The notes under the pieces were generated by a model. It was not told where the DNA came from. It made no database searches and saw nothing but the letters and a program-made list of their open reading frames with translations. Positions 3,213-19,947 of a stretch of 31,393 nt of DNA are shown in pieces (position 1 is the first letter of the stretch; every line of letters begins with the position of its first letter). A program made the position numbers and the translations under genes. The stretch lies in the IMG/VR virus record IMGVR_UViG_2778261541_000008, positions 1-31,393 of that record. The stretch is one strand, 5' to 3'. This stretch comes from a virus (Duplodnaviria; Heunggongvirae; Uroviricota; Caudoviricetes).

Positions 3213-3229
3213 ATATTTATTAGAGCAAT
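3213..3229 (-). promoter_or_regulatory. P1 C1-repressor-type operator (16/17 match to ATTGCTCTAATAAATTT on the minus strand)
   Basis: Plus strand reads atatttattagagcaat, the reverse complement of the 17-bp asymmetric C1 operator consensus as I recall it, with one mismatch. It sits in the divergent intergenic region directly upstream of the minus-strand operon. Confidence 0.6.
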
Positions 3230-13534: not shown

Positions 13535-14116
13535 ATGGCACCTATACCTTATGGGGTTTACAGCCAGGCTGATGGTGTATCGCCATTTCTGAAAGTTACT
13601 TTAACGAACTCTCAGTACCAGGTTACCGGATATATCAGCCAGGGGGCAGCAATGAACATGGCCCAGAATTGGGAAGCGCCGTTTACCGGTATGTCCATGG
13701 GGTCTGTTGCTGGTGCTTTCAGTGGTTTTGCGCAGGTTGGTACTGAAACAACGTCGGTGGCCCGTTGGAACAGCTTAATGGTTTGGGAGGGGGGAACACC
13801 GCCGACTTTCACGCTGCCAGTAACTTTCATCGCTTTGTTTGACCCATTCACGGAGGTTTCAGGAGCTATCGCCGCATTGTCAGCGATGATTAGCCCGGAA
13901 CTTAAAGATGCCAGTATTGGTGGTCGAATCCCGGAGCGTGTGACGCTAAACATTGGTCGCCGGATCAACATCATTGATGTCGCTATCCAGGACATAAGTT
14001 TCGATCTCGATGCACCCAGGGACAGCAATGGGCATTTCCTGAAAAACACCGTCAACCTCCAGTTGACCGGTTCTTCGATATATAACAGCTCCGATATTGT
14101 TCGGGCGTTCCAGTAA
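13535..14116 (+). CDS. Hypothetical tail or morphogenesis protein
   Basis: 193-aa ORF between the acidic protein gene and the tube gene; weak RBS, and a hairpin (13507-13524) lies just upstream. Confidence 0.5.
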   Translation: MAPIPYGVYSQADGVSPFLKVTLTNSQYQVTGYISQGAAMNMAQNWEAPFTGMSMGSVAGAFSGFAQVGTETTSVARWNSLMVWEGGTPPTFTLPVTFIALFDPFTEVSGAIAALSAMISPELKDASIGGRIPERVTLNIGRRINIIDVAIQDISFDLDAPRDSNGHFLKNTVNLQLTGSSIYNSSDIVRAFQ

Positions 14117-14127
14117 AAGGATTTTAT

Positions 14128-14637
14128 ATGGGGCACAATAACACTAAGGGAAACCGTAAATTTATTAAGGGCCGCTATACTGCCAACGCGGCCAAAGGCG
14201 AACGACTGGTATCTTCTGAATTCCAGCTCACTTTTGCAGGCCATGAAGATATCAGCGTACTGGTTCGCACGTCGCAAATTCCTGAAATGACCCGCGAGGA
14301 TGTGGAGGACTATGGTCCGAATGGTGTGAAGTTCAACCAGCACGGTCCAATTCGAAACTCTGGGGAAATCCAGGTCCAGTGCGTGGAGACTATCGAAGGC
14401 GATATTCTTCAGTTCATTAAAGATCGCATTGCGGCGAAGGACTATGTTGATATCACGATGGCTGCGACCCCTGAATCCAAATCTTCCGGGGTTAACGCTG
14501 TGACAAAAGCTGCTACAACAATTGAAATGTTGGACTGCAAAATCTACAGTGATGCAATCGACTTTAGTACCGAAGATGTGACTGCCGCTGTGCGCCCGTC
14601 ACTTCGTATCGTTTACAACTGGATTGAGTGGGATTAA
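14128..14637 (+). CDS. Putative tail tube protein (T4 gp19-like)
   Basis: 169 aa; C-terminal pattern ...RPSLRIVYNWIEWD resembles the C-terminus of myovirus tube proteins (T4 gp19 ends ...TLALDYWE as recalled); followed by a strong terminator. Confidence 0.45.
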   Translation: MGHNNTKGNRKFIKGRYTANAAKGERLVSSEFQLTFAGHEDISVLVRTSQIPEMTREDVEDYGPNGVKFNQHGPIRNSGEIQVQCVETIEGDILQFIKDRIAAKDYVDITMAATPESKSSGVNAVTKAATTIEMLDCKIYSDAIDFSTEDVTAAVRPSLRIVYNWIEWD

Positions 14638-14656
14638 GAGTCATCCCTTGTATTTT

Positions 14657-14680
14657 AAAGCTCCTTCGGGAGCTTTTTTG
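14657..14680 (+). terminator. Rho-independent terminator ending the late head-tail operon
   Basis: aagctcc-ttcg-ggagctt followed by TTTTTT, 20 nt after the tube gene stop. Confidence 0.8.
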
Positions 14681-14720
14681 TGCTTAAATTATGCCGGTAT
14701 AGATAGATTTTGAGCATGTT

Positions 14721-15017
14721 ATGGAAATTGATTTTTCATACTCTCCTGAGACGATAGAAAGAAGATTCGAAATAATTGGATGCATAACTATTTCAGATGA
14801 GCATTATTGGGTTCTCTATGATGCCAATACATGGTTATGTGCCTTAGCAGAATGTCAGCCATCGTTATGTGTAGGGGAGGGGGCTTTTCGACATAAGGTG
14901 CTGGCTACACTTGAAGTGAACACGTTACGATATTGGTGTGTAGAAATACTTAGTGATAACAAAGAATTGCATTTATTATTGCTGAATAAGTGTGCTTCTC
15001 TGCGCAGAAAAGCATGA
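14721..15017 (+). CDS. Hypothetical small Cys-containing protein inside the AT-rich island
   Basis: 98-aa ORF convergent with the two-gene minus-strand operon; weak RBS; low GC. Confidence 0.3.
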   Translation: MEIDFSYSPETIERRFEIIGCITISDEHYWVLYDANTWLCALAECQPSLCVGEGAFRHKVLATLEVNTLRYWCVEILSDNKELHLLLLNKCASLRRKA

Positions 15018-15144
15018 GAAAACCCAACCGCTCTCCAGGAATTATCAGAAGAATATATGCGGAAAGTTATAGCTAGCTATTGAAAAGCTAAAGTAGATCG
15101 GTTAGATTTGCCTTACTCATCTACCATGTGTAGAAAGAGCGATC

Positions 15145-15186
15145 GAACCCGATACATAGCAATATGTGTCGGGTTCAGCTTTTTTA
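15145..15186. terminator. Bidirectional intrinsic terminator between convergent genes
   Basis: Long hairpin gaacccgatacata-gcaa-tatgtgtcgggttc followed by TTTTTT on the plus strand and a U-rich run on the minus strand; overlaps the stop of the 15184..15648 gene. Confidence 0.55.
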
Positions 15187-15648
15187 TGTCCCAAGTGCTC
15201 TTTTTCTGCTTTGTTTGAGTGTTCTGATTTTACTGTCATAGGTTACAACATAGGCTGTTTTGAGAAGCCAATAGTCTCTACGTGCGGATAGCACAACAAC
15301 GTAGTTTTCACACTCATTCCAGATTACCCACTCTTCAGTTGGTCCTCGTCTTTCAGACCAACATGATATATCGCAATGGTTATAATTCCTTATCATATGC
15401 GCGATCCAGCGAATTCGCTTGCACCGTTCAAGATCGGGTATACGTTCTTCTTCTTTTTTTCCCTCTGATACTAAATGCCAAAATCCGAACTCTTTCCCAT
15501 CATATTCCGGTGAATAACGTAATCGAACAGGGAGACCCTTAAACGTTATATTAGAGATTAAAATGTCTTCTCTGACAACATCATATACATCGTCTATATA
15601 CTCTTGCCAACTTCCATTGAAGTACAATAAATCTGGCATTTGAAGCAT
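15184..15648 (-). CDS. Hypothetical protein, second gene of an AT-rich two-gene operon (possible HEPN-like Rx5H motif)
   Basis: ORF 15184..15663; start placed at the ATG at 15648, which overlaps the upstream stop (TGATG). Contains CKRIRWIAHMIRN. GC roughly 30-38%, against about 50% in flanking genes. Confidence 0.5.
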   Translation of the reverse strand: MLQMPDLLYFNGSWQEYIDDVYDVVREDILISNITFKGLPVRLRYSPEYDGKEFGFWHLVSEGKKEEERIPDLERCKRIRWIAHMIRNYNHCDISCWSERRGPTEEWVIWNECENYVVVLSARRDYWLLKTAYVVTYDSKIRTLKQSRKRALGT

Positions 15649-16352
15649 CAGCGAGCCTCCCACACGAAAATATTAAATTTACTTTCTGTTGGAAGAGTGC
15701 TTTTTAGTAACTCCCTGTTTGTATGTGATTTTATCCTGTTTATGACTTGGATTTTTCCCGCGTTGCTATTCATTCCTCGATGAACGTAGCCTAACGCACC
15801 AATGAAAAGATCCGTTAGCTGCAATTGTTGCACTTCATGAGATCGTATATGTTGAATTCTGTTTATCGACTCATGATTGTAATCATAGCGATCATTGTGA
15901 AGAACCCCTCTTAATTTCTCAATTTTTTCAATACCTAAAGTATCTTTTATATCTAGGTAGATATTGTATGTGTTGTTACTTTCTATTATGTTTTTTAAGA
16001 CATAAAAAAACATCTTATAATAGAAAGTATTATGATCTTGATGGAATCGAGCATGGTCCAGTTGCTCTTTATCAGGAACAACAACACCTCTAAAGCGCAA
16101 TGCTGGGTTGCTGAAGAAGTAATCTACGACATCTAAGTAAAATTCAACTTTGGACGCAGATACTTTAGTCCACTTGATTTCGAAATCAGGTTTTAGATTG
16201 TGTTTTAATTTTAATTCCTTGATGTCTCTAGCAATTTTTTTTGTGATAGAGCCAGGACACCAAAGTGCACCCAATACCATGACTTTATTATGATCATTTA
16301 GTAGGTGACAGGATTCATCGCAGAATACATTAAATGTTCTTCGGTTCAACAT
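15648..16352 (-). CDS. Hypothetical protein with N-terminal FCDESCH motif (DUF3800-like?), first gene of the AT-rich operon
   Basis: 234-aa ORF with GGAG-5-ATG; N-terminal NVFCDESCHLL resembles the conserved D-E-S motif I associate with DUF3800-type proteins; very AT-rich coding sequence; own upstream intergenic region of ~170 bp. Confidence 0.55.
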   Translation of the reverse strand: MLNRRTFNVFCDESCHLLNDHNKVMVLGALWCPGSITKKIARDIKELKLKHNLKPDFEIKWTKVSASKVEFYLDVVDYFFSNPALRFRGVVVPDKEQLDHARFHQDHNTFYYKMFFYVLKNIIESNNTYNIYLDIKDTLGIEKIEKLRGVLHNDRYDYNHESINRIQHIRSHEVQQLQLTDLFIGALGYVHRGMNSNAGKIQVINRIKSHTNRELLKSTLPTESKFNIFVWEAR

Positions 16353-16520
16353 GTTAACTCCACTTATTGTTAGGTAGAATTGTCCGTTAGTTGTTTATTA
16401 ATTGCAATAAAGGGACGTCCAGATTTGACAACTATGTCCTCTTACCAGGACACCTATGAGTTTGCCTCATGGCAAACTAGAGGTGTTGAAAGTATGCATG
16501 GTTATAATTAGAGCAATTCA

Positions 16521-17366
16521 TTACCCTCTGAATCCTGCCGGTATACCCCATTGTTCGTTATCTTTATTTTTGGCTAAAACCGCATTAAGAGCTTCGTTTA
16601 CCGTCATGCAATGCGGCAGATTATCGAAGTTTGATACCCCGCCAATATCAGGAGAACGCTTGTTCTTCAGGTAAGCATATTTCCGCGCTGCCGCCTCTAC
16701 CTTCTGCTTGAACTCATGTTTTTGAGCGCGTTTTTTGGATAACCGCAGATTGTCAGCCTTTGCTTTTGCCTCAGCGATCCATGAAGTCAATTTTTTGAGT
16801 CTGGTCGTTCCGGCACCGCCGGAAACTGATCTTTTTGTTTTTTTAACTTGTGACTTCTTATTCTTTATTGCCACGTCATCCTGACAGGGGGAGGGGGTAT
16901 CATTTTGACATGGGGGTGTGGATAAAAAATTAAATAAAGCCAATGTCTTAGCGAGAACAGCTTTAACCTTGGTTGCCGCTGAAGAGATCTTTAATTTGCT
17001 TTCAATCAGCGAATTTTTGGCTTGTTGTGCGAAGGCCAAAAAGGATGGTGTAAACCGGTACAGGTTAGCGCGACGTTCACGGTGATCGCCGATAACAATC
17101 TCTACAGACAGAATTCCTTTGTTTACAGCTTCACGGAATGCACGAACGACGGTTGATTGGCTATAACCAGTTTCTGCCGCGATCAGGCGGTGAGGCTTGT
17201 GAATGAAGTATTCACTGGTTGTTGCCGCGAGATTTGCACATTGCGACAGGATATGCCCGGCGCTACGGGATAGACCGGAGTGTGTTACAACGCAGGCCAA
17301 TTCATAGCCAGAAAAAGTAAAATCGCTCATCGTTATACAGCTCAGGAAAGTGACTTTAGCCAGCAT
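16521..17366 (-). CDS. repL: Lytic replication initiator RepL
   Basis: 281 aa, equal to P1 RepL as recalled; lies immediately downstream of kilA in the same operon under a C1 operator; N-terminal HTH-like region, C-terminal basic region. Confidence 0.7.
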   Translation of the reverse strand: MLAKVTFLSCITMSDFTFSGYELACVVTHSGLSRSAGHILSQCANLAATTSEYFIHKPHRLIAAETGYSQSTVVRAFREAVNKGILSVEIVIGDHRERRANLYRFTPSFLAFAQQAKNSLIESKLKISSAATKVKAVLAKTLALFNFLSTPPCQNDTPSPCQDDVAIKNKKSQVKKTKRSVSGGAGTTRLKKLTSWIAEAKAKADNLRLSKKRAQKHEFKQKVEAAARKYAYLKNKRSPDIGGVSNFDNLPHCMTVNEALNAVLAKNKDNEQWGIPAGFRG

Positions 17367-18265: not shown

Positions 18266-18282
18266 AAATTTATTAGAGCAAA
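18266..18282 (-). promoter_or_regulatory. C1-type operator upstream of kilA-repL (Op53 equivalent)
   Basis: aaatttattagagcaaa, 16/17 to the reverse complement of ATTGCTCTAATAAATTT, about 70 bp upstream of the kilA start. Confidence 0.65.
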
Positions 18283-19616: not shown

Positions 19617-19669
19617 AGTTACGGCCTCACAATCAGGTTTAACAACCTGCTACCCGCTGTCAAACAGGT

Positions 19670-19760
19670 GGCAGGACGTGACAGGGTTGACAGACTGGCG
19701 ATTGTGAAACCAGCAGGCCGAAGCCTCCCCATCACGCCCCACCATAATTTGGGCGTAACG
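19670..19760 (-). ncRNA. c4: c4-like antisense repressor RNA (approximate boundaries)
   Basis: On the minus-strand transcript, GGCCU and CACAAUC (plus-strand 19700-19719) are separated by 7 nt and are exactly complementary to the contiguous GAUUGUG-AGGCC that covers the icd RBS (plus-strand 19621-19637). Ends not determinable by eye. Confidence 0.4.
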
Positions 19761-19930
19761 CGGTTTAACGGACACAAAAATACCGCAATATCGGAAATCT
19801 GCGGTTGTCCGCACAATCATTCAGGCTGTCAAACCTGGTCGTAGAATTTGCTACGACGGCGGAACTATAAGCCTGAACGATTAAAAGGTCAATATGATGC
19901 GAAAAGATAGCATTCGCGACTTAAAAATAC

Positions 19931-19947
19931 AAATTTATTAGAGCATT
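19931..19947 (-). promoter_or_regulatory. C1-type operator at the immunity-I promoter (Op51 equivalent)
   Basis: aaatttattagagcatt, 16/17 to the reverse complement of the operator consensus, in the divergent region between c4/icd/ant and the secreted-protein genes. Confidence 0.65.

Follow-up and report, generated by a model that had tools for sequence, protein, structure and literature searches.

The AT-rich island between the tail operon terminator and repL of the virus record IMGVR_UViG_2778261541_000008 carries the rlfA-rlfB operon known from phages P1 and P7, and comparative analysis indicates that this operon has a third component, the gene of a conserved small structured RNA (sRNA) that is convergent with rlfB. 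The whole stretch of DNA analysed, called here the window, comprises 31,393 nucleotides (nt), and positions given without a locus number (L) refer to it. The rlfAB operon is a three-part system (RlfA, RlfB and sRNA) without a characterised equivalent. While rlfAB was already a named feature of P1 and P7, the convergent and conserved sRNA gene is new. In the P1 annotation, rlfA and rlfB have had a conjectural replication role since 2004; DUF3800, to which RlfA belongs, is a large family without established biochemistry, and PDC-M04 is one among many defence candidates. P1 rlf, a DUF3800 clade and PDC-M04 are one module, directly testable in the best-studied phage-plasmid; a structured sRNA is its obligatory partner and accumulates as free copies in phage tRNA operons. 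The components of the module in the window are the following:

15080 to 15108, plus strand: promoter of the sRNA gene, sigma-70 type, with TTGAAA and TAGATT separated by 17 nt.
15112 to 15189, plus strand: predicted structured sRNA gene, about 72 nt (RNA from about 15114 to 15186); covariance model R1, 76.1 bits, E-value 3.9e-15.
15184 to 15648, minus strand: rlfB (rapB in P7), alpha/beta protein of 154 amino acids with the signature F56-W57-H58 ... R69 ... R75 ... R78 ... W81.
15648 to 16352, minus strand: rlfA (rapA in P7), DUF3800 protein of 234 amino acids, beginning MLNRRTFNVFCDESCH.

The island and its surroundings (14400-16700) share 99.1% of their nucleotides with phage P7 and 97.8% with phage P1, and the gene order is identical. 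RlfA and RlfB are identical to the P1/P7 proteins in 233 of 234 and 152 of 154 residues, respectively. The genes, called rlfA-rlfB in P1 and rapA-rapB in P7, are located after ant-kilA-repL, with the same C1 operator as in the window. The pair is therefore the canonical P1/P7 rlfA-rlfB, and the choice offered by the first-pass annotation, a diverged rlf pair or a swapped-in cargo, falls away. The rlfB ATG and the rlfA TGA overlap by one base (TGATG), and the two genes are predicted to be translationally coupled. In the P1 annotation (Lobocka et al. 2004), the label "possibly associated with lytic replication" derives solely from the place of the genes, and the sRNA gene is absent; in the P1 record AF234172 no feature is annotated at the sRNA locus.

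The sRNA was discovered in the DNA 3' of rlfB from six enterobacterial loci, where about 70 nt are near-identical while the proteins themselves diverge by 25-35%. Read in the sense opposite to rlfB, this segment has the anatomy of an sRNA gene: a TTGAC-type -35 element, a spacer of 17 nt, a TAnnnT -10 element (constant in form, variable in sequence) and a transcript starting with CUCAUCUACCAUGUGUAGAAAGAGCG. The 5' part of the predicted RNA is a compound hairpin, with an outer helix CUC/GAG, an inner helix UCUAC/GUAGA and a CAUGU loop, and it is followed by a linker. The 3' part is a long terminator-like hairpin (15145-15176) closed by a GCAA loop, GNRA across loci, whose U-tail overlaps the rlfB stop codon. 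This second hairpin had been overlooked in the first-pass annotation and belongs to the conserved sRNA gene. The minimum free energy of the window sRNA is -30.3 kcal/mol (z -6.7).

A fuzzy search also found the sRNA core in loci from Saccharibacteria, Verrucomicrobiota and Planctomycetota. The covariance model recovered one copy in each of 40 of the 41 rlfAB loci (sites in the window and in L006, L008 and L010-L048), always opposite rlfB and overlapping its end, and zero copies in the alternative-cargo P1-like loci. In RNAalifold, 15 sequences folded into the compound 5' hairpin and a 3' hairpin, and 11 of the 21 pairs covaried; the pair counts were above those of all shuffles and all slid controls. 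With 40 sequences, 96.3% of the cells were paired and two-sided changes occurred in 15 of the 21 pairs, a result that none of 500 shuffles matched. The 5' module shows 78% nucleotide identity across phyla, versus 50% for the 3' hairpin and 45% amino-acid identity for RlfB. The promoter hexamers (TTGAC; (G)ATAAT/TATACT-type) are found at a constant distance in nearly all 40 loci, in variable surroundings. No conserved element was found upstream of rlfA, where the regions do not align among loci.

It could be argued that rlfA and rlfB are two orphan genes only and that the conserved element downstream is a mere bidirectional terminator, since the 3' hairpin, with its U-run and the A-run upstream, can terminate both ways. 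However, conservation is highest in the 5' hairpin module and not in the terminator; the G-U pairs and the compensatory changes are compatible with the plus (sRNA) sense alone; the promoter is conserved at a fixed distance; and more than 60 orphan copies exist without rlfAB. This explanation is hardly credible, and the comparative sequence evidence indicates that the sRNA is a real, conserved and previously unannotated structured RNA.

The RNA does not correspond to any family in Rfam 15 even at an E-value of 10, barring a sub-threshold match to ctRNA_pGA1 (23.5 bits versus 45), and an Rfam search with a phage orphan copy gave no match either. A scan of 13 sources at the Rfam gathering scores, including the DUF3800-associated motifs, drum and skipping-rope, was also negative for the sRNA, its separation from the DUF3800-associated motifs extending as far as Rfam models represent these. 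Two other identities were considered and discarded. A peptide encoded by the sRNA is not tenable because its sole ATG (CCATGTG) is ACG or AGG in several loci. A tRNA is equally discarded: ARAGORN finds none in the window, and no tRNA overlaps any of the RNA matches.

RlfA matches the Pfam family DUF3800 (PF12686) with 54.2 bits (cut-off 21; E-value 3.5e-14) over profile positions 1-148 of 149. This family has been described as RNase H-like with DE and QxxD motifs (PMC7736814, PMC10910872; motif definition from PMC7736814), and RlfA carries both, the N-terminal DE (D12, E13) and the C-terminal QxxD (Q178, D181). In 40 homologues, D12, E13, D134, D137, Q178 and D181, as well as C15, H16 and C32, are invariant. 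The whole catalytic domain resembles in structure the type 2 RNase H fold (RNase HII/H2A/HIII), and D12/E13, D134/D137 and D181 are on the expected RNase HII elements, namely the end of strand 1, the strand 127-133 and the helix 175-191, in a comparison at the level of structural elements. On the structural model, RlfA would be a candidate nuclease of the DUF3800 family that keeps its acidic residues within an RNase HII-like fold. Its homologues form more than 5400 clusters; even among the best 120, which represent distant phyla, identity does not fall below 52%. Beside the DE motif there is a Cys/His cluster (C11, C15, H16, C32), invariant or nearly so in the 40 homologues, that could be a metal site.

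Profile searches of Pfam, NCBIfam and PDB gave no relatives of RlfB, even when 149 members of its family were scanned one by one; this family comprises 1757 representatives at the 50% clustering level. H58 is invariant in it, and F56, W57, R69, R75, R78, W81 and W97 are nearly so. The predicted model is alpha/beta with a four-stranded sheet; a Foldseek search gave no significant match, and colicin D, a tRNase, is among the best fold matches. Judged by this model, the fold is probably closest to the RelE/colicin D-type (BECR-fold) RNase toxins, and RlfB is a probable candidate for an RNase or an RNA-binding effector.

The Rx5H motif (CKRIRWIAHMI) that had been pointed out in the 154-amino-acid protein is present in the sequence, but its histidine (R78-x5-H84) is not conserved in the family. 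A HEPN RNase is discarded for RlfB, given that H84 varies, that the model is alpha/beta instead of all-alpha, and that no HEPN structure appears among the fold matches. The labels "replication protein" (PHROG) and "oxidoreductase" (NCBI/RefSeq) are propagated names without sequence or structural support. In public records rlfB figures as "oxidoreductase", "replication protein" or "hypothetical protein", or is not called at all. Divergent RlfB variants with Cys-rich insertions are present in L093 (205 amino acids), L088 (216) and L075 (178), where the DUF3800 gene and the RNA are still found.

The genomic context of the module was studied in 39 loci, 35 of them species-level loci found from RlfB and four obtained by exact look-up. 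The rlfA gene is directly upstream of rlfB and abuts it in 38 of the 39, and look-ups of RlfA homologues showed RlfB downstream in four out of four. The commonest neighbours are HsdR, HsdM and HsdS. The hsd genes of type I restriction-modification (R-M) systems are found alongside rlfAB in at least 11 of the 35 species-level loci, typically in the order hsdM-hsdS-rlfA-rlfB-hsdR on one strand, and also in L045 and L047. The first of these is a Bacteroidota defence island (L045:4183-15617) in which hsdM/S, a reverse transcriptase, rlfA, rlfB, the RNA, hsdR, an uncharacterised gene, PIWI (pAgo) and a helicase follow each other on one strand. In the second, from Methylomonas sp. 11b (L047:8699-9200), rlfB has an in-frame stop (called as 57 amino acids) between hsdS and hsdR and may be a decaying copy; the RNA is kept. 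Other contexts are a P4-like satellite, a RhuM/SymE island and, in Burkholderia and E. coli, positions right after the integrases of integrative elements. In 33 of the 35 loci the G+C content (GC) of the module is below that of its flanks.

RlfA and RlfB also match the PADLOC models PDC-M04A and PDC-M04B (E-values 7.8e-96 and 1.1e-52, respectively), with the genes adjacent and overlapping by one base. The PDC candidates derive from genes lodged within BREX, DISARM and type I R-M systems, and they are candidates only (10.1101/2024.01.29.577857). The literature searched contained no mention of PDC-M04 and no defence assay of PDC-M04, rlfAB or this DUF3800 clade. The type I R-M embedding is reproduced here. 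However, PDC-M04 is a two-protein candidate and PADLOC holds protein models only, whereas the RNA part, the folds and the link with P1 rlf come from the present analysis.

A comparable case is PrrC, a nuclease-type cargo that, like rlfAB, has hsdS on one side and hsdR on the other within a type I R-M operon (EcoprrI), on the same strand; the tRNase colicin D among the best fold matches of the RlfB model is a further, predicted likeness. In contrast, PrrC is a single ABC-ATPase-like protein without an RNA partner, and rlfAB is found also outside R-M loci (P1, integrative elements). The proposal of the first-pass annotation that the island holds a defence, abortive-infection or toxin-antitoxin (TA) cargo has gained comparative support from the match to PDC-M04A/B, the R-M embedding and integrase proximity, the nuclease-like folds and the conserved sRNA, but a HEPN-like reading of RlfB does not gain such support.

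Copies of the sRNA are also found on their own. Among 121 core matches in metagenome contigs, 78 have a convergent RlfB, two have DUF3800 only, 19 are orphan and 22 are undecidable, being near contig ends; hence a convergent RlfB is present at 78 of the 99 evaluable copies. In viral contigs of IMG/VR, 124 copies were confirmed by the model, of which 25 are linked to RlfB/RlfA, 48 are orphan and 51, near contig ends, are undecidable. The orphan copies retain the invariant 5' module. Of the 99 viral copies without RlfA or RlfB nearby, 28 are within 500 nt of a tRNA gene, all 28 on the strand of that tRNA, compared with a background of 12% of bases and with none of the 25 linked copies. Several orphan RNAs are situated within arrays of 20-31 phage tRNAs. 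Examples of orphan copies, taken from the viral loci L050-L168, are:

L085, 9853 to 9923, minus strand: orphan sRNA copy.
L126, 3658 to 3742, minus strand: orphan sRNA copy.
L116, 8641 to 8711, plus strand: orphan sRNA copy.
L061, 2962 to 3033, minus strand: orphan sRNA copy.

Two further arrangements were observed in viral loci. The RNA is co-directional with rlfB, and not convergent, in three of them (L051, L064, L117). In low-GC viral contigs (L058, L062, L077, L089, L091, L102, L108) two variants of the RNA stand in tandem, separated by about 60 nt, and lie 370-580 nt upstream of a metallophosphoesterase-like open reading frame (ORF) of about 400 amino acids (GDLIGG ... GGHIHH), without RlfA and RlfB.

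The most likely reading of the rlf cassette, to which we give an even chance, is a module of nucleases restrained by an RNA, akin to toxin-antitoxin or abortive-infection systems, for which the phage RNA copies would be antidotes; its RNA logic is modelled on ToxIN and pseudo-ToxI, its place in R-M operons on PrrC and its layout on convergent type I loci. The sRNA, predicted to be made from its own constitutive-type promoter, would keep the RlfA/RlfB nucleases silent, either by binding one of the proteins in the style of type III antitoxins, or by base-pairing to the rlfAB transcript at its 3' end in the style of convergent type I antitoxins, or by both routes. If the sRNA supply failed or an invader disturbed the complex, RlfB and/or RlfA would cut RNA (tRNA or mRNA) or RNA-DNA hybrids and growth would stop. 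Candidate triggers are transcription shut-off, loss of the element and inhibition of the adjacent type I restriction enzyme. As a consequence, a competing phage would be blocked or cells losing the element would be killed, and phages with an orphan RNA in their tRNA operons would be antidote suppliers. In P1 and P7, the C1 operator at the edge of the cassette would make the expression of rlfAB depend on the repressed state of the prophage. What we infer in this scheme is that the proteins are nucleases and toxic, that the RNA inhibits them, what triggers them, and that they act against phages.

The type III TA system ToxIN resembles the rlf module in combining a protein of nuclease-like fold with a dedicated structured RNA of which phages bear stand-alone copies. 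In work attributed to Blower and colleagues in 2012, phage phiTE is said to carry a pseudo-ToxI. The type III layout, a tandem-repeat antitoxin RNA upstream and co-directional, is not found at rlf loci: whereas ToxI has that layout, the rlf RNA is single-copy, downstream and convergent (40/40 genome loci and 78/78 RlfB-linked metagenome loci), the co-directional variants of the three viral loci being rare. In addition, the rlf module has a second protein, RlfA, and ToxN does not have a RelE/colicin D-like fold.

Convergent type I TA systems, such as pAD1 par (Fst/RNA II) and the txpA/ratA and bsrG/SR4 pairs of B. subtilis, share with rlf a convergent sRNA, a 3' overlap and a common hairpin, and at the rlf loci the convergent 3' overlap is located at the rlfB stop codon. 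However, type I toxins are mostly small hydrophobic peptides. The feature of a membrane-active peptide toxin is absent here, since the partners are soluble proteins of 234 and 154 amino acids, and the 5' module of the sRNA is conserved well beyond what antisense pairing needs.

A third group of related systems is formed by the DUF3800 genes that adjoin varied, terminator-ended structured RNA motifs (DUF3800-I to -XI, Weinberg et al. 2017; PMC5737381), an association with which the sRNA found beside rlfAB agrees. DUF3800 genes have also been described in type VII retrons (PMC7736814), with Cas12a2/a3 (TPR-DUF3800) and with Cas13 (Csx32). The rlf module differs from them in that the RlfA clade has an obligatory RlfB and requires neither a reverse transcriptase nor a Cas gene, although a reverse transcriptase is adjacent in L045. 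These recurrent associations and the conservation of the RNA 5' module, far above pairing needs, would also suit an sRNA that is a cofactor, guide or substrate instead of an inhibitor, with the RNase H/PIWI-like RlfA using or processing the RNA and RlfB serving as an RNA-binding adaptor. We find this quite unlikely, because a guide of fixed sequence would have no obvious variable target and the phage orphan copies, having the same sense as the sRNA, cannot pair with it.

Tentatively, and with considerable doubt, the scheme of restrained nucleases may be extended to a new, phylum-spanning class of RNA-controlled immune or addiction modules formed by RlfA, RlfB and the convergent sRNA, in which both nucleases would be RNA-inhibited and the phages would have captured the RNA as an antidote. 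If the RNA is an antidote, it would provide a second, independent example of RNA mimicry as phage counter-defence. P1 rlf would then be the first genetically tractable member of the class, which would also explain the frequent ties between DUF3800 and structured RNAs.

In the P1-like backbone, the stretch from the tail operon terminator to repL is a variable slot, and the rlf cassette that occupies it here is accessory and horizontally mobile. The features that define this slot in the window, together with the remaining gene of the island, are:

14657 to 14676, plus strand: intrinsic terminator hairpin 3' of the tail gene bplB, AAAGCTCC-TTCG-GGAGCTTT followed by TTTTTT (terminator scan).
14680 to 16506, no strand assigned: variable cargo cassette of the P1-like backbone, that is, the AT-rich island, containing pmgF, the sRNA gene, rlfB, rlfA and the rlfA upstream region.
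14721 to 15017, plus strand: pmgF, 98 amino acids (98/98 identical to P7 Upf52.1, 95/98 to P1 PmgF).
16353 to 16520, minus strand: rlfA upstream region with the predicted PrlfA promoter (a prediction of the P1 annotation; P1 features transferred at 97.8% identity).
16501 to 16517, minus strand: C1 repressor operator Orlf/Op55, monovalent, ATTGCTCTAATTATAAC (annotated protein_bind features of P1 and P7).
16521 to 17366, minus strand: repL, lytic replication initiator containing oriL; backbone, outside the cassette (P1 comparison).

In blastn comparisons with the alternative-cargo plasmids L003-L005, homology ends at 14679, just past the bplB terminator, and restarts at 16507, inside the C1 operator; therefore, the replaceable cassette coincides almost exactly with the AT-rich island, and the bplB terminator is its left edge. 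The operator follows directly after the repL stop codon. Its half-site or core, ATTGCTCTAAT, is kept with the repL backbone in the alternative-cargo plasmids L003 (~1830-1846) and L004 (~2327-2343), so that differing cargos inherit a (partial) C1 site.

The AT-rich island noted from the sequence does exist, with a GC of 0.373 across 14640-16520, the lowest among all 1881-bp windows of the 31.4-kb stretch (mean 0.472, standard deviation 0.032). However, the contrast initially quoted (20-38% against 50-57%) was too large, the values by gene being 0.349 for rlfA, 0.391 for rlfB and 0.384 for pmgF versus 0.48 for bplB, 0.505 for pmgG, 0.456 for repL and 0.502 for kilA. In the same way, the terminator said to isolate the island in both directions is a genuine hairpin with a T-run on the plus strand, but its minus-strand tail is TTTAAAAT only and at best it would be weakly bidirectional.

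The two coupled minus-strand genes and the convergent gene of 98 amino acids had been correctly described (15648-16352 and 15184-15648 on the minus strand, 14721-15017 on the plus strand). PmgF was considered as a third protein of the module and discarded: it has no homologue beside rlfAB in the 35 non-P1 loci, and its N-terminal domain is found with other cargo. Its first ~64 amino acids are 45-47% identical to the N-terminus of an ORF of 198 amino acids at the same position in alternative-cargo plasmids (L004:1275-1871, L005:1275-1871).

Taking a coverage of at least 80% of 13535-17366 as the mark of its presence, the rlfAB cassette is carried by 98 of the 710 PLSDB plasmid records that match this region; most of the others match the flanks only. 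Thus, the full-length alignment with P1 RlfA/RlfB, which the first-pass annotation would have taken against a cargo if combined with low GC in all P1-like genomes, was obtained, but a low GC common to all of them was not. The pair is present in 121 of 5426 complete E. coli genomes, nearly always on plasmids. The alternative cargo of the slot consists of hokD (Hok/Gef toxin; the commonest) with or without IS421, an Ail/Lom porin, and unidentified ORFs, and gave zero PADLOC matches. The replacement of rlfA-rlfB-pmgF among compared genomes had already been published (PMC6906374).

The original sense of rlf/rap was that of an accessory of lytic replication. RlfA would be an RNase H processing an RNA primer or R-loop, possibly with the sRNA in the manner of ColE1 RNA II/RNA I, and the AT-rich region would help, as an auxiliary origin, to start the lytic or rolling-circle replication of P1. 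The position directly downstream of kilA-repL, with a C1 operator, is compatible with this role, as are the RNase H fold of RlfA next to a small structured RNA, the early expression of rlfAB along with repL in P1vir infection (10.64898/2025.12.28.696737), and the proposal of a possible extra oriL with IHF sites in the rlf operon, ascribed to Lobocka et al. in PMC9948254. However, plasmid replication needs only RepL and an 88-bp target inside repL (PMC9948254), and knock-down of rlfA, rlfB and pmgF by CRISPR interference leaves the efficiency of plating of P1 at about 1, with plaque formation unaltered and pmgF nonessential (PMC10695390). About 86% of the matching P1-like plasmid records lack the cassette, the three-part module occurs over many phyla in non-replicon contexts, typically type I R-M operons, and low GC accompanies it at all sites. 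We consider a replication accessory very unlikely, and the rlf cassette is dispensable for P1 replication and lytic growth. The repL segments of P1-derived cloning vectors listed in the P1 record end at rlfA, the longest 4 bp short of the annotated rlfA start codon. If the RNA is an antidote, this would also bear on P1-based vectors and on phage-plasmid engineering, where the cassette counts as dispensable filler.

A role in addiction alone should also be considered, that is, an RNA-antitoxin TA module that stabilises P1/P7 and other mobile elements by post-segregational killing, with no direct anti-phage role. The convergent sRNA over the 3' end of the downstream gene is a type I TA-like layout, hokD is the commonest alternative cargo in the slot, and the module is found at integrase-proximal sites of integrative elements. 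Against this, the fact that the module often lies within type I R-M operons of chromosomes and the origin of the PDC candidates in defence islands fit defence better, and the enrichment of orphan RNAs in phage tRNA operons is hard to account for by plasmid addiction alone. This restricted role appears rather unlikely, but TA and abortive-infection roles are not mutually exclusive.

Several observations weigh against an RNA-restrained nuclease module with a defensive function. The alternative cargo of the slot (Hok, Ail/Lom) is not defence-specific. Conservation is higher in the putative enzyme RlfA, with a mean identity of 55% to the protein of the window against 45% for RlfB, which does not tell which component is the effector. 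The phage orphan RNAs could have an RNA function of their own, unrelated to RlfAB. Finally, the C1 operator and the early-lytic expression suggest that rlfAB is repressed in lysogens, which is unusual for a prophage-borne system protecting the host. Because of this operator and this timing, it can be argued that in P1 rlfAB is made mainly after derepression, which suits addiction or competition between phages no less than the classical protection of the host by a lysogen.

Other features were seen in the window outside the cassette. Three minus-strand sites are at most one mismatch away from the C1 operator consensus ATTGCTCTAATAAATTT, namely 18266-18282, 19931-19947 and 3213-3229, the first of which is Op53, before kilA. 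Upstream of ant, Rfam matches at 19664-19749 and 19818-19870, both on the minus strand, correspond to the P1 immI C4 antisense RNA and its a1/b1 target, both expected in a P1/P7-type element.

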